Shown piece after piece: positions 36,842-61,741 of a stretch of DNA of 64,000 nucleotides (within the stretch, counting starts at the first letter, position 1; each line of letters begins with the position of its first letter). This DNA is from Escherichia phage vB_EcoM_G2540. Where the stretch lies: sequence record MK327936.1; one strand, given 5' to 3'. The position numbers and the translations under genes are program-made. Below the pieces are notes generated by a model. It saw only the letters and a program-made list of their open reading frames with translations, was not told the origin of the DNA and searched no databases.

Positions 36842-37266
36842 TGCTTCTGATCCCTGAAACTCATGAATTAGTTCTCGAGAATGTCGAAGCACTTATTCCT
36901 GAAGCACAGGGTCGCTTTGACGAATTGTCTTCTGCTTTAAATAAAGACGATATAAATACAATTGTCGAGAATATGCTTGATGATGAAACTGATTTAGCGG
37001 TTGCATTAGCTTCTATTAATGAAAATATGCCGTTAAATGAATTCATCGTTAAACATGTTTCCGCCCGTGGTGAAATTACTCGCACTAAAGACCGCAAAAC
37101 GCGTGAACGTAATGCATTTCAAACCACTGGACTGTCTAAAGCAAAACGTAGACAAATTGCTCGTAAAGCTACCAAAACGAAGATTGCCAATCCAGCAGGT
37201 CAATCTCGTGCTCAGCGTAAGCGTAAAAAAGCTCTTAAACGCCGTAAAGCATTAGGATTAAGCTAA
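36841..37266 (+). CDS. 68: gp68 prohead core protein
   Basis: 141 aa, basic C-terminus. Confidence 0.85.
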
Positions 37267-37904
37267 TGAATGAACCCCAATTACTAATTGAAACTTGGGG
37301 TCAACCTGGCGAAATTATTGATGGCGTACCAATGCTTGAATCTCATGATGGAAAAGACTTAGGTTTAAAACCGGGTTTATACATCGAAGGAATATTCATG
37401 CAAGCGGAAGTTGTCAATAGAAATAAACGTCTTTATCCAAAACGTATATTAGAAAAAGCGGTAAAAGACTATATTAATGAGCAAGTTTTAACTAAACAAG
37501 CTCTCGGAGAATTAAATCATCCTCCACGCGCTAATGTTGACCCAATGCAAGCCGCTATCATTATAGAAGATATGTGGTGGAAAGGAAATGACGTATACGG
37601 ACGAGCTCGTGTTATTGAAGGTGACCATGGTCCTGGAGATAAATTAGCAGCTAATATTCGTGCCGGATGGATTCCAGGAGTTTCTTCTCGTGGATTAGGT
37701 TCATTGACTGACACAAATAAAGGTTATCGTATCGTAAACGAAGGATTCAAATTAACTGTAGGTGTTGATGCAGTATGGGGTCCAAGTGCTCCAGATGCAT
37801 GGGTAACTCCTAAGGAAATTACCGAATCACAGACGGCGGAAGCCGATACAAGTGCCGATGACGCCTATATGGCTCTCGCAGAGGCCATGAAAAAAGCGTT
37901 ATAA
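37266..37904 (+). CDS. 21: gp21 prohead core protease
   Basis: 212 aa. Confidence 0.93.
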   Translation: MNEPQLLIETWGQPGEIIDGVPMLESHDGKDLGLKPGLYIEGIFMQAEVVNRNKRLYPKRILEKAVKDYINEQVLTKQALGELNHPPRANVDPMQAAIIIEDMWWKGNDVYGRARVIEGDHGPGDKLAANIRAGWIPGVSSRGLGSLTDTNKGYRIVNEGFKLTVGVDAVWGPSAPDAWVTPKEITESQTAEADTSADDAYMALAEAMKKAL

Positions 37905-55506: not shown

Positions 55507-55510
55507 CAAT

Positions 55511-55534
55511 GGGGACCTTTCGGTCCCCATATTT
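55511..55534. terminator. Bidirectional terminator between gene 54 (+) and the alt region (-)
   Basis: GGGGACCTTTCGGTCCCC palindrome followed by ATATTTTTATTT. Confidence 0.75.
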
Positions 55535-55825
55535 TTATTTACGGAATGAAATGAAAGCAGCAACTGAAGCAACTAAACTGTCTTCAATATAAACTTCAAT
55601 TTTTACCGGAGCTTCTGACTCAAATTTACCTGTTACTACACCCTGAAAAATACTTTCAGTCTGTTCTGGCTTTGAAAAATTTTCAGAAGGAAAAATTCCG
55701 AACTTTTTATCTGTTCCAAAAATTTTAATAAATTCATCGTAAACTGCTTCATTAAAAGCGTTATCAGCAGGAATAACGCCTTCAACTACAAGTTCTTGAC
55801 CTAAAAAGCGCAAAGAAGATTTCAT
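55535..55825 (-). CDS. Hypothetical protein (alt.-3-like)
   Basis: 96 aa ORF. Confidence 0.55.
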   Translation of the reverse strand: MKSSLRFLGQELVVEGVIPADNAFNEAVYDEFIKIFGTDKKFGIFPSENFSKPEQTESIFQGVVTGKFESEAPVKIEVYIEDSLVASVAAFISFRK

Positions 55826-55885
55826 TTTGTGTTCCTCATGTTATGTCAGTAAGACTACTATAACACAACATAAGGAACTTGTAAA

Positions 55886-57943
55886 CTACATTTTGAACTT
55901 TTTAGACATTCCGTTGATGTTAACCAAAGAAGCTAATATTTGAGAAACTTCGTTTTCCTCTTCTTTTGATTCTTCTACAAGGAATTGATTAAATCCAGCC
56001 ATTGGACGAACTTCACCAGTTTCCATTAAATGGTCGCCATCATATACTGATTCTTCTAATTGTTCAGAAGGAGGAACGATTGTACCTTCGATTAGATACT
56101 TGTTATAAGCAGTTTCTTTCATAAAGTACGTACTTACTTTATTAATCTTTAGTAAAATTCCGCGCGGTAGAATAACTTCAGCTTCTGATGGAAATCCTGA
56201 TAAATGACCTGGAACGATAACTTTGATTCGCTCAGCTCCTTTAATTACCATACCCACGCTAGTTTCAGCATCTTCATTAGCATATGTAGAATGACTACCC
56301 ATATGCATCAAATCTTCTGCATCAACGGAATCTTCTCCTTCACCAGAAAATACTGCGCCGGAATCATCTAGAGCCATATAGTTTTTACCATGCTCACCGA
56401 AGATATTTGGTTTAAGCGATGTGGATACGAAGTTCTTGAAATAAAACATTTTATTTTCAATGTTATGACGCAAAGTTTTAAAGGTAACTTCTTGTCCACG
56501 GTAAAGCGTAGTTCCTGGAGGAAGAACTGAACCTTTAGCGAATGCAGAATCCAACGTCTCGATGTGCTTAATAGCACGTTCCATATATTCTTCACGGGTA
56601 GAATCTGGTTTACCCAAAAGGAACGAGTTCATTTCAACATATGAATCAGCACAATAATCTTCAATTACGTCAGATTCAGCCTGAGTTAATCCTTTTGGAG
56701 TTACTTCGGTGCTTGCGTATTCATACGCCTGGGCGGCAGATTCATTAATCAATTTATAAATGCCATTCATGACGAATTGAATAATAGCTGTCTTTTCATC
56801 TGGCGTGGCTTTAGAACCTTTAACTAAATCATTAATAATTTTCTTAATAACATCAAAGCTATTAGAAATATTAATGTCAGCAAGATCGCTTAAAATTTTA
56901 TCAGTTTTATAATCAAAGAATTCTTTATTCTTTAAATATTCTTGAGAACCTTGATATGTTATATCGCTCTGCAGCTTGATAGATGGATCACGTAAACGCG
57001 CATGGGCCAATGCGATATGATTTCGGAAGTTTTCTAGTTCATAATCGCTAGATTTAAAACGAGAAGCACTCCTCATACCACCAATAGCTCCTTTGCTGAA
57101 GTTTGAACCAATCTGAATAACGCCAGAGTTCATTGGTCCTTCTGCTTTATACACCGGAACTTTAAATTCAAACTCTTGATATTTCTTAGCAGCGAAGCTA
57201 TCACCCTGAAGTGAAGCATCGACAGTAGAATATTGAGCTTGTGCTGCTAATCGACGACTGATTTTAGTTTTCTGAATAACAGCTTGGTCCGTGCGTTTAT
57301 CATTTTCTAAAGCAATAGAAGCAGCAACAGCGACAGCTTTAGGAACAGCATTTCCTGTTTTAACGTCTACATAAACATCACCGACCTTTGATTCAACTTT
57401 TGTGAATAACTCAGTTGAAATAGGAGGTACACCTGGAATGTCTTCTAAATTGGCATTTTTACGGTAAACCATAATATATGCGTACTTTTTATCGTAATCC
57501 CAGATTTCCTTTAAAAGAACATATCGACCTGCTCCTTTAGTACGTACTAAACGGTCAGCAATAACTTGCATTTGACGAGCAGCGCCATTTGTTTTACTCT
57601 TTAGTACGCGAAATAAGCATGCATCAATTTTATACTGTTTCATTGTTTGAAGAGCAGTATCAAAAACAGCATTAATGACGCCAATTGGATTTCCACCCAA
57701 GTTTTTAAGCTTAACTAACGATAATTTCTCGTTGACACCTATCATTACGATATGCATCATTTTATCGCCTGGCTTAACGTTTTTATTCGTATCACCGCCA
57801 GAGGTGTATGTACAAAATCTAAATCCAGGAAGCACGCTTTCTTCACCGGCTTGAATAGCAAAAATTTGTGGTATTTTATGCTTAGGATTTAAGTTAACAA
57901 CCGGCGCCGAAGCGCCGTCAAATAATTCTGTAATAAGTTCCAT
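55886..57943 (-). CDS. Alt-like ADP-ribosyltransferase paralog (second copy, downstream of alt)
   Basis: 685 aa; N-terminal 230 aa closely similar to the adjacent Alt ORF (MELITELFD...CTYTSGGDTN...); C-terminal ART-type R-S-E signature (LYRGQ, FVSTSL, EAEVILPRG). Confidence 0.85.
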   Translation of the reverse strand: MELITELFDGASAPVVNLNPKHKIPQIFAIQAGEESVLPGFRFCTYTSGGDTNKNVKPGDKMMHIVMIGVNEKLSLVKLKNLGGNPIGVINAVFDTALQTMKQYKIDACLFRVLKSKTNGAARQMQVIADRLVRTKGAGRYVLLKEIWDYDKKYAYIMVYRKNANLEDIPGVPPISTELFTKVESKVGDVYVDVKTGNAVPKAVAVAASIALENDKRTDQAVIQKTKISRRLAAQAQYSTVDASLQGDSFAAKKYQEFEFKVPVYKAEGPMNSGVIQIGSNFSKGAIGGMRSASRFKSSDYELENFRNHIALAHARLRDPSIKLQSDITYQGSQEYLKNKEFFDYKTDKILSDLADINISNSFDVIKKIINDLVKGSKATPDEKTAIIQFVMNGIYKLINESAAQAYEYASTEVTPKGLTQAESDVIEDYCADSYVEMNSFLLGKPDSTREEYMERAIKHIETLDSAFAKGSVLPPGTTLYRGQEVTFKTLRHNIENKMFYFKNFVSTSLKPNIFGEHGKNYMALDDSGAVFSGEGEDSVDAEDLMHMGSHSTYANEDAETSVGMVIKGAERIKVIVPGHLSGFPSEAEVILPRGILLKINKVSTYFMKETAYNKYLIEGTIVPPSEQLEESVYDGDHLMETGEVRPMAGFNQFLVEESKEEENEVSQILASLVNINGMSKKFKM

Positions 57944-57946
57944 GAT

Positions 57947-60043
57947 TTATCCTTGAACGAACTTGTAAGGCATGTTTGTAATATCTATGCAAGACGCAAT
58001 AATTCCAAGAGATGATTCTACTTTCTGTTTAACGTTTGATGAAACAAATGATGCAAAGTCAACTCTGTCTTCTATTTCAATATCACCTGTCATTGCAACC
58101 AATTCACCAGTTTCCATTAAATGGTCTCCATCATAGATTACCGATTCGGTGAGCTCTTCCGTGGTCATAACTTCAGCTTGAATGAGTTTTGTATTATTAG
58201 ATGTTGTTCCGTCATTATTAGAAGCATCAGTTATTTTATTAACTTTGACCATCAATCCACGCGGTAGAATAACTTCAGCTTCTGTTGCTATTCCGAGACT
58301 TCCTGGATATACAACATTAACTTTATGAGCTCCATCAATTGCCCATCCTATTTGAACTTTAACGTATTCAGGATTTTCTTTATACGCTCTTATTTCGTTT
58401 GGATTAATAGTTATTCCTTCTTCATTTTTATCAACTGTTAATTCATTGCGAGCTTCTGGTTCTAAAAGACCAATACCAGCATGTGTAATTCCAAAACGTC
58501 CAAAAATGATAGGAGTTAAAGAAGTAGATACAAAATTTCTGAAGTAGAACACTTTATTTTTAACTAACGCTTCATATATAGGAGCAGTCATACTTTGAGC
58601 ACGATAAACTGTAATGCCTTCTGGTATACGGTCACCATTTTCAAAAGCTGAATCTAAGTTATTTATAGCAGATTCAATTTCTTTTTCACTCATTACATCA
58701 TATCGTTCTGGATTGTAACGACCTAAAAGAAGATTATTGATGTCAGTATATCCTGAACCGCAATATTCTCTAATGCCACGCTTTTGTGATGGAGTATATT
58801 TAGAACCATCGCGGGCAATAGTAATATCAATCATTGGACCAGCACCAATTCCAGAAAAACTGTAAATCATTCGTTTGAGGAATTTAGTTTTTGCTGCGTT
58901 CCAGGAATTTTTAGTTATTTCTTCCCAGACTTCATCTGGTTGTCCTTTACGATTTTTATTATGATTAGCAAGCCATTTATCTTTATAATCTTCAAAGAAT
59001 TGATTTACAGCTGCTGCGTATTTCTCTAAACATTTTATTGAAGTAGTTGGTTCATTTTTAATTGCATTAAAAATTACTTCTTTAATTTTTTCTGAAACTT
59101 CACCGACTTGACTCATTGGAAAGAATTTATAATCATAGTGAAGTTCATCTGCCGTTCCTTCAGCAATAATTTTTGCTGCCTTTGTTTTAGAAGCTAATGA
59201 ATTAATTCCAATTTTCATTTCTTCTGCTTCGGGAATTAAAGGTGCAGTAGCTGGTTTATTAAAATTAGCTGCTGTAGATTCATACTTCTGGAATAATTCA
59301 CTTTCAAATCTAGAAGATTCCAATGACTGACTTTGTGCAATTGCTCTACGGGAAATTTTAACTTTAACGATTACGGCTTGGTCAGAACGTTTATCATTTT
59401 CTTGTGCAATTGATGCTGCAATTGCCTCATTTTTAGTTACTTGGGCTCCAGTATCTTTATTGATATAAACATCACCAACCTTCGATTCAACCTTAGTAAA
59501 GAGTTCAGTACTAATTTCTGGAACTCCTGGAATGTCTTCTAGTGATACGTTTTTACGATGTATAAGAATATATGCATACTTTTTATCGTAATCCCAGAGT
59601 TCCTTAAGAAGGACGTATCTGCCACCTGAACGACTACGGATAAGTCTATCAGCAATAAGTTGAATTTGTCGAGCTTGACCGGCGGTTTTAGACTTAAGAA
59701 TGCGTAGCATACATGCATCAATTTTATACTGTTTCATTGTTTGCATTGCTACGGTAAATACTGAATTGATGTAATTAATAGGACTCGGTCCAAGACCCTT
59801 TAATTTAGCAATTGACCCCTTTGCAGTTAATGTAAAAGGAACGATATGCATCATTTTATCGCCCATTTTTAAATCGCGATTAGTATCACCTCCAGATGTA
59901 TAGGTACATAAACGAAAGCCTGGTTGTTCAATTGCATCATCAACATGAACTGAAAAAATTTGTGGTATTTTCTTCTTTGGATTTAAGTTTGTAATCGGAA
60001 GAGTAGTATCTTCGTCAAATAATTCTGTAATGAGTTCCATCAT
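57947..60043 (-). CDS. alt: Alt, capsid-packaged ADP-ribosyltransferase
   Basis: 698 aa; begins MELITELFDEDTTLPITNL; ART R-S-E signature (VYRAQ, FVSTSL, EAEVILPRG). Confidence 0.9.
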   Translation of the reverse strand: MMELITELFDEDTTLPITNLNPKKKIPQIFSVHVDDAIEQPGFRLCTYTSGGDTNRDLKMGDKMMHIVPFTLTAKGSIAKLKGLGPSPINYINSVFTVAMQTMKQYKIDACMLRILKSKTAGQARQIQLIADRLIRSRSGGRYVLLKELWDYDKKYAYILIHRKNVSLEDIPGVPEISTELFTKVESKVGDVYINKDTGAQVTKNEAIAASIAQENDKRSDQAVIVKVKISRRAIAQSQSLESSRFESELFQKYESTAANFNKPATAPLIPEAEEMKIGINSLASKTKAAKIIAEGTADELHYDYKFFPMSQVGEVSEKIKEVIFNAIKNEPTTSIKCLEKYAAAVNQFFEDYKDKWLANHNKNRKGQPDEVWEEITKNSWNAAKTKFLKRMIYSFSGIGAGPMIDITIARDGSKYTPSQKRGIREYCGSGYTDINNLLLGRYNPERYDVMSEKEIESAINNLDSAFENGDRIPEGITVYRAQSMTAPIYEALVKNKVFYFRNFVSTSLTPIIFGRFGITHAGIGLLEPEARNELTVDKNEEGITINPNEIRAYKENPEYVKVQIGWAIDGAHKVNVVYPGSLGIATEAEVILPRGLMVKVNKITDASNNDGTTSNNTKLIQAEVMTTEELTESVIYDGDHLMETGELVAMTGDIEIEDRVDFASFVSSNVKQKVESSLGIIASCIDITNMPYKFVQG

Positions 60044-60063: not shown

Positions 60064-60095
60064 TATTTATAAAATTAAAGGCCCGAAGGCCTTTA
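60064..60095 (-). promoter_or_regulatory. Terminator hairpin (GGCCCGAAGGCC) followed by late promoter TATAAATA (plus 60064-60071 rc) upstream of alt
   Basis: Palindrome aaaggcccgaaggccttt overlapping stop of upstream ORF; TATAAATA on minus strand about 20 nt upstream of the alt ATG. Confidence 0.55.
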
Positions 60096-60281
60096 ATAAT
60101 CTATTGGTAAGAGAGTACGATATATTTCAAACTTTGGACCTTTTTCATAGGCATCAAATGTTTCTGTGAATTTATTATAAGCATATGCATCTATAAATTC
60201 AATCATGATTTGTGATACAGAAGTAGAAACATCTCCACCTTCTTTTTGAGCCACGACAATTGTTTCTAAGTAAGCTTTCAT
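60093..60281 (-). CDS. Hypothetical small protein
   Basis: 62 aa ORF, ATGA overlap with gene 30 stop. Confidence 0.5.
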   Translation of the reverse strand: MKAYLETIVVAQKEGGDVSTSVSQIMIEFIDAYAYNKFTETFDAYEKGPKFEIYRTLLPIDY

Positions 60282-61741
60282 AAACCAGTTACCTCATGAA
60301 AATCACCAAATACATCCTCGAATGTATTAGCTTTAGTTTTATCTTCACGTAAACGAATCGCAATCGGAAGAAATAATTTAACGTAATCAGTGCGGCCATC
60401 AGATTTTAACCAACCGTTGCATTCGCACTCTAGAATTTTTCCAATATAATAATTTTGATTTTCCATAATGCGAGTACGATCAAGTTCATGCGATTTTACA
60501 CCGGCTTTATCTTTTAAGCCTGAACCAGCATTTACTTTAATTTTTCCACACTCTGATTCAAGAATGAAACCACCTGCTTTAGTAGGGTCTTTACGGTGAG
60601 GATAAATTCCTACAATTTTTAAATCAACATCAATTACTTCTTTAAATTTATAAAGATTTTTTGAACGAGCATTTTCCCATAATCCATCGATATTTTTGAG
60701 AATAATACCTTCAAGACCTTGGTCAATATACTTTTTGTAAATTACCTTAGCTTCATCTAGGTTATTTACTACTTGGTTTTCAATTAAAATTACTTTATCA
60801 TAGCCTGATGTCATTTGTTCTAGTTTAGAAAAACGTACATCATATTTTAAACGAAATGCTGGAAGACCATATATTTCTACTAATGGAACATAATCCCAGA
60901 CCTGAAACTTCATGCATTGTGCTTCTTTTTCAGAAATGGTTCCCTTTAAAGATTTATTGGCGATGCCATTAGATGCAGTACGTGATTCAGCTACTTCGGC
61001 GAATTCTTTAGCTTTACTAATTTCAGGATAAGCATCAAAAAGAAAATCTAGGCCTTCTGGTTCCTTTTCAACTTGCTCATGGTATACCAATTCGCCATCA
61101 ATTAACACACCTTCTGGATGAATCTGGCGGGCTTCAGCAGTCATTTTGATTAACTCTTCCTTAAGAAGATCTAATCCTAGATATTCATTGCCAGCTCGTG
61201 ATAAAAGACGAACATCATCTAATTCATCACCTCTGACTTCGGCAAAGCACCGAGCTCCATCAGCTTTTAACTGGGCAAAGGCTGGAAATTTGATATTCTT
61301 ATTAATGCCTTTTTCATCATAAGAACTTGCAAGCATTTGAGGTTGTTCAGGAATTAAACCTGGCCAAACTTTGTTCGCAATAGATACTGAAGCGCCACAT
61401 TCAAGGTCTCGCATCATCACTCGACGCAAAACTTCAACATCATCTTTTTTACCATCGGTGATGTATCCAATTAATTCCTCAATCGCCGCATTTCCAGTCA
61501 ATTTCCGAGTAGCTAACGTGAATTCAATGAAGTCAAGCATATCGGTAAGAGTCAACATTCCAAAACTCTGGGTAGCAATACCAGGTTTAGGCCATTTCTT
61601 GATATAATACTGTAACCCACGAGAATAAGTCAGACGATATACTCGTTTAAGCAATTCATTATCTTTATTCTTTTCAAGAATTGCTTGCTTCTGCTTAGTT
61701 GAACCAATAGATGCTATTTCGTTCAGAATTTTAAGAATCAT
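60278..61741 (-). CDS. 30: gp30 ATP-dependent DNA ligase
   Basis: 487 aa; adenylation motif KADGAR (motif I), T4 DNA ligase-like sequence throughout. Confidence 0.95.
   Translation of the reverse strand: MILKILNEIASIGSTKQKQAILEKNKDNELLKRVYRLTYSRGLQYYIKKWPKPGIATQSFGMLTLTDMLDFIEFTLATRKLTGNAAIEELIGYITDGKKDDVEVLRRVMMRDLECGASVSIANKVWPGLIPEQPQMLASSYDEKGINKNIKFPAFAQLKADGARCFAEVRGDELDDVRLLSRAGNEYLGLDLLKEELIKMTAEARQIHPEGVLIDGELVYHEQVEKEPEGLDFLFDAYPEISKAKEFAEVAESRTASNGIANKSLKGTISEKEAQCMKFQVWDYVPLVEIYGLPAFRLKYDVRFSKLEQMTSGYDKVILIENQVVNNLDEAKVIYKKYIDQGLEGIILKNIDGLWENARSKNLYKFKEVIDVDLKIVGIYPHRKDPTKAGGFILESECGKIKVNAGSGLKDKAGVKSHELDRTRIMENQNYYIGKILECECNGWLKSDGRTDYVKLFLPIAIRLREDKTKANTFEDVFGDFHEVTGL

Follow-up and report, generated by a model that had tools for sequence, protein, structure and literature searches.

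Two tandem Alt-like ADP-ribosyltransferase genes at the alt locus of Escherichia phage vB_EcoM_G2540

The textbook case of a phage enzyme carried in the head and acting on host proteins upon DNA entry is T4 Alt, which ADP-ribosylates Arg265 of the RNA polymerase alpha subunit. The window analysed in this study (a stretch of 64,000 nucleotides of Escherichia phage vB_EcoM_G2540, sequence record MK327936.1) carries a head-to-tail pair of large minus-strand ORFs related to alt, at positions 57947-60043 (698 aa when read as the longest ORF) and 55886-57943 (685 aa). This raises the question of whether the second gene specifies another active enzyme of this type, which enters the host together with Alt and acts on targets of its own.

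The arrangement itself is real, common, and already annotated and described. Both genes are named Alt-like in RefSeq, duplications of alt were described by Nolan 2006, and a 2026 paper made the same inference concerning a second Alt-type enzyme. A literature search on the function of the paralog (including the terms “alt.-2”, virion proteomics, biochemistry and T-even paralogs) retrieved descriptive mentions only; in a Klebsiella T4-like phage of a different genus, one ADP-ribosyltransferase (ART) is present in virions. Our analysis is useful in that it suggests a simple experiment, and does not amount to a discovery.

Organization and transcription of the locus

The window is best explained as a Tequatrovirus (T4-like) genome with the ancestral two-gene alt locus, in which alt is followed by a full-length paralog. 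As at other Alt-family loci, the pair follows a late promoter and is flanked by DNA ligase / alt.1 on one side and alt.-3 / gp54 on the other. The start codon of alt is most likely the second ATG, at position 60040, since T2, RB14 and RB5 are annotated in this way and the removal of six N-terminal residues from T4 Alt is counted from that methionine. Read from this codon, the gene (57947-60040, minus strand) encodes 697 aa opening with MELITE, to which the longest ORF adds one methionine. It represents the T2/RB14-type and not the T4-type allele (identity of its product to T4 Alt: 99% for the N-terminal module, 33% for the middle region and 69% for the C-terminal part). The paralog (55886-57943, minus strand), which encodes 685 aa, is separated from the alt stop codon by a spacer of 3 nt (57944-57946). 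Its orthologs include the gene that the RB14 and RB5 annotations name alt.-2, and what is given as the second Alt-like RNA polymerase ADP-ribosyltransferase in T2 and in hundreds of Tequatrovirus records. These are 685 aa long, occupy the same position and show 95-100% identity per protein segment; the gene of the window does not differ from them substantially and is one more annotated member.

Both products match PF03496 (ADPrib_exo_Tox; 9.6e-38 for alt and 5.6e-20, i.e. 72 bits with a cut-off of 23.4, for the paralog) and the Alt-like family phrog_802 (2.8e-273 for alt and 2.2e-256, across residues 1-685, for the paralog), while no NCBIfam model matches either of them. The ORFs, BLASTP and PF03496 bear out the starting point of an earlier note on this DNA, namely the presence of two adjacent Alt-like ART genes. 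Its statement that both proteins begin with MELITELFD is correct once alt is started at 60040, and incorrect for the 698-aa ORF.

Both proteins share a plan of three parts. A conserved N-terminal module of ~240 residues, preceded by a hexapeptide with a prohead-protease site at its end, is followed by a divergent helical middle with an R-S-E (C3/VIP2-type) ART domain containing an E-x-E motif, and then by an acidic C-terminal propeptide located after a second protease site. In the paralog, the module comprises residues 1-238 (57230-57943), including the hexapeptide MELITE with its terminal gp21 cleavage motif; the ART catalytic core, defined by profile, fold and alignment, spans approximately residues 416-631 (56051-56696); and the predicted propeptide (pI 4.6) is formed by residues 632-685 (55886-56050 with the stop codon).

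A late promoter core of the T4 type, TATAAATA, is located upstream of alt (60064-60071, minus strand) and is preceded by a GC hairpin (AAAGGCC-TTCG-GGCCTTT). All eight comparison loci share this core, which was found in the same place in T4, RB14, T2, 11B, W143, SF2-1 and RB5. No terminator-like hairpin was detected on the minus strand between alt and the paralog, and a Shine-Dalgarno-like AAGGA lies inside the final alt codons. Considering the 3-nt spacer, the lack of an intergenic terminator and the conserved promoter, both genes are probably carried on one late message starting upstream of alt, which agrees with the co-transcription proposed previously. The accompanying claim that the downstream copy has no promoter of its own is likely, but not strictly true, since a second TATAAATA is present within alt (58660-58667, minus strand), 717 nt upstream of the paralog ATG. 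As a dedicated promoter of the paralog it was rejected because it is not conserved among close relatives: it occurs in four of the six comparison loci with the same type of alt allele (RB14, T2, 11B and NiC89) and in neither of the T4-type loci, the loci lacking it being SF2-1, RB5, W143 and T4. It is retained as a caveat, since late transcription of the paralog might also start there, apart from alt, in this phage. The final gene of the block, alt.-3 (55535-55825, minus strand; 96 aa, DUF5498), lies behind a sigma-70-like promoter of its own (TTTACA-N17-TATAGT, 55857-55885), and a bidirectional terminator (55509-55530) closes the block.

Divergence of the two copies and their catalytic domains

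The products of alt and the paralog are 41% identical (BLASTP, E 5e-158), with 68% identity in residues 1-238, 21% in the middle (239-415), 35% in the ART core (416-631) and 43% in the C-terminal tail. At the DNA level, a direct repeat with a period of ~2094 nt is present, and the propeptide region contains an island of 84% identity between the copies. The picture drawn in the earlier note, of a highly similar stretch of about 230 residues followed by diverged C-terminal halves, is therefore accurate. The N-terminal module is a recognised Pfam family (PF26846, Tevenvirinae_ADPRT), and both PF26846 and PF03496 were found on the cluster representative of the paralog (99% identity; precomputed). 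An N-terminal module of this kind with an ART domain behind it, in proteins of about 600-710 aa, characterizes the Tevenvirinae Alt family, to which the paralog belongs.

Between the two N-terminal modules, dN is 0.28 and dS is saturated (~1.8). Their similarity therefore reflects long-term constraint, and recent gene conversion as its source was ruled out in this window. Gene conversion does happen at the alt locus in some other phages. Natural chimeras (P0003, P0005 and P0006) contain an Alt-type N-terminal tract up to residue 43, 174 or 218 and a paralog-type remainder, and in these, judging by their sequences, the modules of Alt and the paralog are interchangeable. We also considered the module as a general delivery system with varied cargo, in the style of polymorphic toxins. 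This idea was rejected: an exhaustive search placed the module in 69 clusters only, always at the N-terminus of Alt-sized proteins, and the same ART family was present in eight of ten distant proteins sampled. Since the module is tied to ARTs, only the weaker reading of exchangeable ART versions was kept.

The R-S-E signature noted previously is present in both ORFs, as LYRGQ (paralog) and VYRAQ (Alt), FVSTSL in both, and SEAEVILPRG and TEAEVILPRG, respectively. The catalytic residues correspond to R482, S507-T-S509 and E587-A-E589 in the paralog, and R480, S505-T-S507 and E587-A-E589 in Alt. In 19 diverse homologs, R482, S507, S509, E587 and E589 of the paralog are invariant. In a profile alignment, its E-x-E coincides with the Q-x-E / E-x-E motifs that C3cer and BECa have, and E-x-E predicts arginine specificity for both phage enzymes, in contrast to the C3 enzymes, which have Q-x-E and modify asparagine.

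The AF2 model of the paralog is of moderate quality (pLDDT 72.7, with 54-73 across the insert after S-T-S and low values in the C-terminal propeptide). When it was compared with the PDB using Foldseek, the best 50 matches were all ART toxins, Certhrax among them (E down to 2e-6, probability 1.0), and the best structural matches of the catalytic domain were Vis, the C3 exoenzymes (C3bot), and the VIP2, iota and CDTa toxins. These bacterial proteins differ from the paralog in being secreted and delivered in other ways, and are only 12-20% identical in sequence; phmmer found nothing among PDB sequences, and a family profile was needed. T4 ModA and ModB share the R-S-E clade and the E-x-E motif with the paralog (Iyer et al.), but are proteins of ~200 aa without the N-terminal module, middle region and propeptides, which are early, non-packaged and encoded at a distant locus. 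A MAFFT alignment including ModA and ModB aligned the E-x-E and misplaced the Arg and S-T-S regions, and was excluded from residue-level claims.

These data bear directly on the possibility that the paralog is an inactive pseudo-enzyme or a decaying duplicate. Decay is what happened in T4 and 90 other records, where only a frameshifted and deleted remnant is left. For the gene of the window this reading is strongly disfavoured, to the point of being highly improbable: the ORF is intact, with a constant length of 685 aa, in all eight phages compared, its dN/dS is 0.024-0.064 (dS up to 0.27; 0.013-0.046 in the ART part), R, S-T-S and E-x-E are both intact and invariant, and the ART fold is recovered by Foldseek. 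The earlier note had named a missing fold or lost catalytic residues as the outcomes that would contradict it, and the opposite was found in each case. Profile and fold support the assignment of both products to the R-S-E-type ARTs, with predicted enzymatic activity.

Prohead-protease sites and possible targets

In T4 Alt, gp21 cleaves after ITE-6 and LTE-619, the second cut removing a 63-residue C-terminal propeptide, and a protein of 68.2 kDa results (Ali et al. 2017, PMC5694885); we reproduced this mass by calculation from the T4 sequence. The paralog contains both motifs ([L/I]-x-E), as MELITE/L (ITE-6, identical to that of T4 Alt) and QLEE/S (LEE-631, in the homologous position), the window's alt has ITE-6 and LTE-632, and all 19 family members keep the two sites. 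The propeptide of the paralog, which is homologous to that of T4 Alt, opens with SVYDGDHLMETGE, conserved family-wide, and its residues Y634, D635, G636, D637, E641, G643, E644, K682 and F683 are invariant in the 19 homologs. The window also encodes a gp21-type prohead core protease (37266-37904, plus strand; PF03420 Peptidase_S77, 1.5e-111), whose gene adjoins those of the scaffold (PF25623) and portal (PF07230) and whose product would be expected to carry out the processing of both Alt-type proteins.

A common packaging or processing region, as suggested in the earlier note, gains support from the conservation of motifs mapped in T4 Alt, and the two kept gp21 sites support, short of proof, packaging of the paralog in the head, as for the gp21-processed internal proteins of T4 (Alt, IPI-III), and its injection. 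The paralog shares with T4 Alt (gpAlt, NP_049811) the three-part plan, an N-terminal module of ~68% identity, an R-S-E ART with E-x-E, the ITE-6 site, a C-terminal L-x-E site followed by YDGDHLMETGE, the late promoter, and the locus between gene 30 / alt.1 and alt.-3 / gene 54. They differ in the middle region (12% identity) and the ART core (36%), and the window's own alt is a separate allele from that of T4.

The mechanism we propose would begin with late transcription of alt and the paralog from the upstream TATAAATA, probably as one message. Both proteins would then enter the prohead core, where gp21 would trim both their ends; the trimmed forms would stay in the head once it is filled, reaching the next host along with the DNA, and each enzyme would move ADP-ribose from NAD+ onto arginines of host proteins. 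Alternatively, the paralog might not be injected, acting late in the producing cell or serving a structural or regulatory function in the head core, with ART activity being secondary. Its expression from a late promoter alongside head and tail genes fits such a role, as does the unexplained propeptide, which is enigmatic even in T4 Alt. Against this, the paralog retains both gp21 motifs and the N-terminal hexapeptide just as they occur in T4 Alt, which is packaged, the N-terminal modules are exchanged in natural chimeras, and the catalytic residues are under strong constraint; we consider a non-injected role quite improbable.

Assuming injection, the choice is between shared and separate targets. 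The ARTT loop of the paralog, S-G-F-P-S-E-A-E (582-589), has the usual aromatic residue (F584) at position -5 from the catalytic Glu, where Alt has Ile (window) or Pro (T4). An aromatic residue at this position also occurs in C3cer and BECa, which share the pattern aromatic-x-x-[Q/E]-x-E in a profile alignment. The acidic insert after S-T-S (516-560) is divergent, and unrelated to that of either Alt. These differences argue against a substrate specificity identical with that of T4 Alt. Since the ARTT loop, the insert and the helical region all differ from Alt, the set of targets is most likely partly different.

It is also conceivable that the paralog, although active and packaged, is redundant with Alt and shares its targets, above all the RNA polymerase alpha subunit, providing extra dosage or a back-up against host variation or inhibitors. 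The domain plan, E-x-E and processing sites are common to both proteins, the gene was lost in 91 records with no compensation seen, and T4 Alt is promiscuous, modifying many host proteins (Depping 2005, as cited in later work), so overlapping or redundant targets are possible. This alternative is nevertheless unlikely in our view: only 35% of the ART core and 21% of the middle are identical between the copies, the ARTT loop and insert are unrelated, and the duplication is ancient (dS saturated), yet both copies are strongly constrained, which suggests divided or new functions over redundancy.

As a whole, the likely and best explanation is that the paralog is an active, packaged and injected Alt-type ART with targets partly different from those of Alt. 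Of this, we infer that the paralog is packaged, processed and injected, that it is enzymatically active and that its targets are distinct; gene structure, homology, fold, catalytic residues, selection, motifs, distribution and the T4 deletion are observed.

Distribution of the second gene and its significance

The earlier note was uncertain whether T4 carries an equivalent gene. T4 has no full-length paralog; its remnant ORFs alt.-1/alt.-2 (NP_049810, NP_049809), annotated in GenBank as duplicating the beginning of alt, are near-identical at the DNA level to the first ~120 codons of the paralog, which is intact in the window. The ORF is split by the loss of 1 bp from an A-run near nt 163, and a deletion of ~1.69 kb between CTAAA(G/A)AGT repeats has removed the gene from approximately codon 116 almost to the stop codon. 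In the phage collection searched, the full-length paralog is present in ~401 records (94-98% DNA identity) and the T4-like deletion in 91, including T4 (~4:1). Comparison across T-even genomes, as the note had advised, therefore identifies the full-length paralog as common and the T4 reference as the unusual case. Its loss in 91 records indicates that the gene is dispensable on some hosts at least. A lineage further removed (L011), whose paralog is 74% identical, has the same gene order, and Dhakavirus shows it as a three-gene array.

A broader proposal, to which we attach even chances, is that the majority of T-even phages found in nature inject a pair of Alt-type enzymes, the second being gp21-processed, arginine-specific and equipped with its own targets, possibly a host defence or a step of the takeover handled differently by T4. 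The alt locus would then behave as a small cassette system, in which one conserved delivery module carries ART versions that can be exchanged for one another, at least three in number (the Alt of T4, the Alt of T2 type and the paralog). The second enzyme is missing from laboratory T4, and has consequently been absent from decades of T4 work. Should it be injected and act on targets of its own, the account of early host takeover derived from T4 would lack a part in most T-even phages, among them many that are under development for therapy.

Layout and transcription of the two genes

The pair of Alt-type genes in the window is real, and its reading in an earlier note as a tandem of ADP-ribosyltransferases (ARTs) is sound. 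The window retains T4 gene order across 53.4-62.9 kb, with gp48 and gp54 on the plus strand. On the minus strand lie a homolog of alt.-3 (55535-55825; 96 aa, Pfam DUF5498), the second Alt-type gene, hereafter the paralog (55886-57943; 685 aa), alt itself (57947-60040 or 60043; 697 or 698 aa), a 62-aa homolog of alt.1 between ligase and alt (60093-60281), and DNA ligase gene 30 (60278-61741). The likely start of alt is the second ATG (60040), as annotated in T2, RB14 and RB5. Both proteins then begin MELITELFD; the identical start proposed earlier therefore holds for this ORF, but not for the longest one of 698 aa. The alt.1 homolog has a match to Pfam PF24647 “Phage blade protein” (7.5e-29); past its stop codon come a GC hairpin and the late promoter of alt, in this order.

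The core of this T4-type late promoter, TATAAATA, is located at 60064-60071 (minus strand), directly past the hairpin and 16 nt ahead of the alt Shine-Dalgarno region, and it is kept in all comparison loci. Co-transcription of alt and the paralog is the simplest reading of the sequence, because the two genes are separated by 3 bases, AAGGA precedes the paralog ATG, and no terminator-like hairpin was seen between them on the minus strand. The next terminator, which is bidirectional with a 9-bp stem, is placed past alt.-3 (55509-55530), between this gene and the converging gp54. The earlier proposal that the downstream copy depends on the late promoter of alt is thus upheld as regards co-transcription, but its claim that this copy has no promoter of its own has to be qualified, since a second TATAAATA occurs within alt (58660-58667) and is a possible promoter for the paralog. 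This internal site is present in four relatives and missing from SF2-1 and RB5, which share the alt allele of the window, and it is probably fortuitous. In the whole window TATAAATA was found 25 times, against 10.3 expected from shuffled sequences (0 of 100 shuffles reached 25). These sites are concentrated on the plus strand at 32-46 kb, with the portal, protease and scaffold genes, and such clustering near head genes is expected for T4 late promoters. Within the 60 nt that separate the paralog stop from alt.-3 is a strong sigma-70-like promoter (TTTACA-N17-TATAGT, preceded by TG; 55857-55885, minus strand), so that early expression of alt.-3 is possible in addition to late read-through.

As the earlier note had proposed, the tandem ORFs share an N-terminal part and diverge in the remainder. 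The proteins are 41% identical overall (BLASTP, E 5e-158), and a direct DNA repeat with a period of about 2094 nt is apparent. Identity amounts to 68% for residues 1-238, 21% for 239-415, 35% for the ART core (416-631) and 43% for the tail. The helical region preceding the core (21%) and an insert of about 45 residues after the S-T-S motif (12%) are essentially unrelated. Synonymous sites are saturated between the two copies (N-module dS about 1.8) while dN is only 0.28, which indicates that the duplication is old. The same saturation rules out recent conversion as the source of the N-terminal similarity, which is the result of constraint.

Catalytic domain and substrate loop

Full-length matches to phrog_802 (“Alt-like RNA polymerase ADP-ribosyltransferase”) were obtained for both proteins, as were matches to Pfam PF03496 ADPrib_exo_Tox (9.6e-38 for alt, 5.6e-20 for the paralog). 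For the paralog, the best PDB matches of an AlphaFold2 model (pLDDT 72.7) are ART toxins without exception, namely Vis, C3bot, CDTa, VIP2, iota and Certhrax (probability 1.0, E down to 2e-6), so that profile and structure searches alike recover the ART fold in the second ORF. All of the motifs quoted in the earlier note were recovered. The catalytic residues of the paralog are R482, S507-T-S509 and E587-A-E589, and those of Alt are R480, S505-T-S507 and E587-A-E589. None of them varies among 19 aligned homologs, whose identities go down to 42%; the R-S-E signature is thus kept in the second copy. Judged from sequence and model, both are ADP-ribosyltransferases with intact predicted active sites. 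In this ART clade the E-x-E motif accompanies arginine specificity.

The two enzymes differ in the ARTT (substrate-recognition) loop, which in C3 and iota-type toxins helps to determine substrate choice. In the paralog this loop reads S-G-F-P-S-E-A-E, with an aromatic residue five positions ahead of the catalytic Glu. Profile alignment places an aromatic residue at the same position in C3cer (A-Y-P-G-Q-Y-E) and BECa (G-Y-K-N-E-Y-E), and relatives of the JS10/KM16 type carry Tyr there, whereas Alt proper has Ile (window allele) or Pro (T4). Since the loop contributes to substrate selection, it is reasonable to infer that the target range of the paralog would differ from that of Alt.

Predicted processing, probable packaging and the N-terminal module

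Mass spectrometry has shown that the prohead protease gp21 cleaves T4 Alt at two sites, ITE-6 and LTE-619, which yields a mature protein of 68.2 kDa (Ali et al. 2017, PMC5694885). The mass that we computed for T4 residues 7-619 equals the published value, which confirms the placement of the sites. The paralog begins MELITE, identically to T4 Alt, and at the position homologous to LTE-619 has QLEE/S (slash, cleavage point) followed by the conserved SVYDGDHLMETGE. Its predicted mature form comprises residues 7-631 (69.3 kDa), leaving an acidic C-terminal propeptide of 54 residues. The N-terminal motif, [L/I]-x-E at residues 4-6, and the C-terminal one, [L/I/M]-x-E/[S/A] ahead of YDGD, each occur in 19/19 aligned family members. 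The window also encodes gp21 (37266-37904; Peptidase_S77, 1.5e-111), as well as scaffold and portal genes. These data indirectly support packaging and gp21 processing of the paralog, which is probably an injected enzyme; virion proteomics covering it was not found in the literature.

The two paralogs resemble each other more in their C-terminal propeptide regions (55886-56050 and 57947-58144) than in the enzyme domain. All 19 homologs keep SVYDGDHLMETGE and the terminal K-F, a DNA island in the tails is 84% identical between the copies, and a second L-M-E motif occurs 10 residues past the mapped cleavage site. These features suggest that the propeptide may do more than provide a cleavage site, e.g. 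act in targeting, tethering or auto-inhibition.

Searched exhaustively with HMMER, a set of 1.84 billion representative proteins yielded the N-module in only 69 clusters, always N-terminally and in proteins some 600-710 aa long. PF03496 is present in eight of the ten distant members that were sampled. The N-module is thus tied to ARTs, and the idea of a general cargo carrier was rejected on the basis of these two results. Among distant members, P0184 (541 aa) has a C-terminal part without a Pfam match or a recognisable R, S-T-S or E-x-E, and in P0183 (485 aa) Lys replaces the catalytic Arg (LYKN) and S-C-S replaces S-T-S; their cargo may be non-ART or degenerate.

Three database proteins from metagenome and ENA assemblies (P0003, P0005 and P0006) are candidate natural chimeras, Alt-type up to residue 43, 174 and 218, respectively, and paralog-type thereafter. 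From these proteins, whose breakpoints all fall within the N-module, the modules of the two types appear interchangeable. The chimeras look like products of gene conversion or unequal recombination between tandem copies, although they may include assembly artefacts. The chimeras, the conserved gp21 motifs and the gp21 gene of the window all indirectly favour the earlier suggestion that the shared N-terminal region would serve packaging or processing.

Distribution, the T4 remnant and alleles of alt

The length of 685 aa is common to the paralog orthologs of RB14, T2, RB5, W143, NiC89, SF2-1 and vB_EcoM_11B. Pairwise dN/dS among these and the window gene is 0.024-0.064 (dS up to 0.27), and 0.013-0.046 for the ART part alone, values which identify the paralog as a working gene under strong purifying selection. 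The same pair, in the same order, occurs on a metagenomic contig of a more distant lineage (L011), whose paralog is only 74% identical. Escherichia phage PSD2002, a Dhakavirus, carries a tandem array of three Alt-like genes (L010, 1244-7356; 631, 693 and 707 aa). Each is annotated as a hypothetical protein, and an alt.-3 homolog and gp54 come next; the gene adjoining alt.-3 is closest to the window paralog (about 51% identity).

The earlier note was unsure whether T4 carries an equivalent full-length paralog; only a remnant was found. In T4, alt is followed by alt.-1 and alt.-2, which the GenBank record attributes to an old duplication of the initial part of alt. Our alignment assigns them (L001, 5000-5460) to the first ~120 codons of the window paralog. 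The remnant is disrupted by the loss of 1 bp from an A-run near nt 163 (AATAAAAACG to AATAAAACG) and lacks ~1.69 kb between imperfect CTAAA(G/A)AGT repeats, from about codon 116 to just short of the paralog stop. Past the junction the ORF runs out of frame over this stop into the spacer before alt.-3. In the phage collection, the full catalytic half of the paralog is present in 401 records (94-98% identity, T2 included) and the T4-type junction in 91, natural isolates included. Together with the remnant, these counts indicate that the T4 state is derived and in the minority.

The alt gene itself comes in two allele types within Tequatrovirus. Comparison of the window (57947-60040), T4 (L001, 5455-7503) and W143 (L006) revealed N-modules about 99% identical, a middle region only 33% and a C-terminal part 69% identical. 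T4 and W143 have the T4 type, and the window, T2, RB14, RB5, 11B and SF2-1 the other; by their middle regions, 175 and 325 phage records belong to the respective types. As W143 has both the T4 type of alt and a full-length paralog, allele type and paralog presence are not strictly linked.

The tandem arrangement is already known from annotation and the literature. Many RefSeq records name both genes “Alt-like RNA polymerase ADP-ribosyltransferase”, and in RB14 and RB5 the second is labelled alt.-2. Among the duplications of alt listed by Nolan et al. 2006 (PMC1524935) are the T4 remnants and a full-length duplicate in phage 44RR. [quoted passage not shown] We found no experimental work on the paralog in the literature. 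To this our analysis adds the retention of both mapped gp21 sites in the paralog, strong purifying selection, differing ARTT loops, the definition of the T4 deletion, candidate natural N-module chimeras and two alleles of alt itself.
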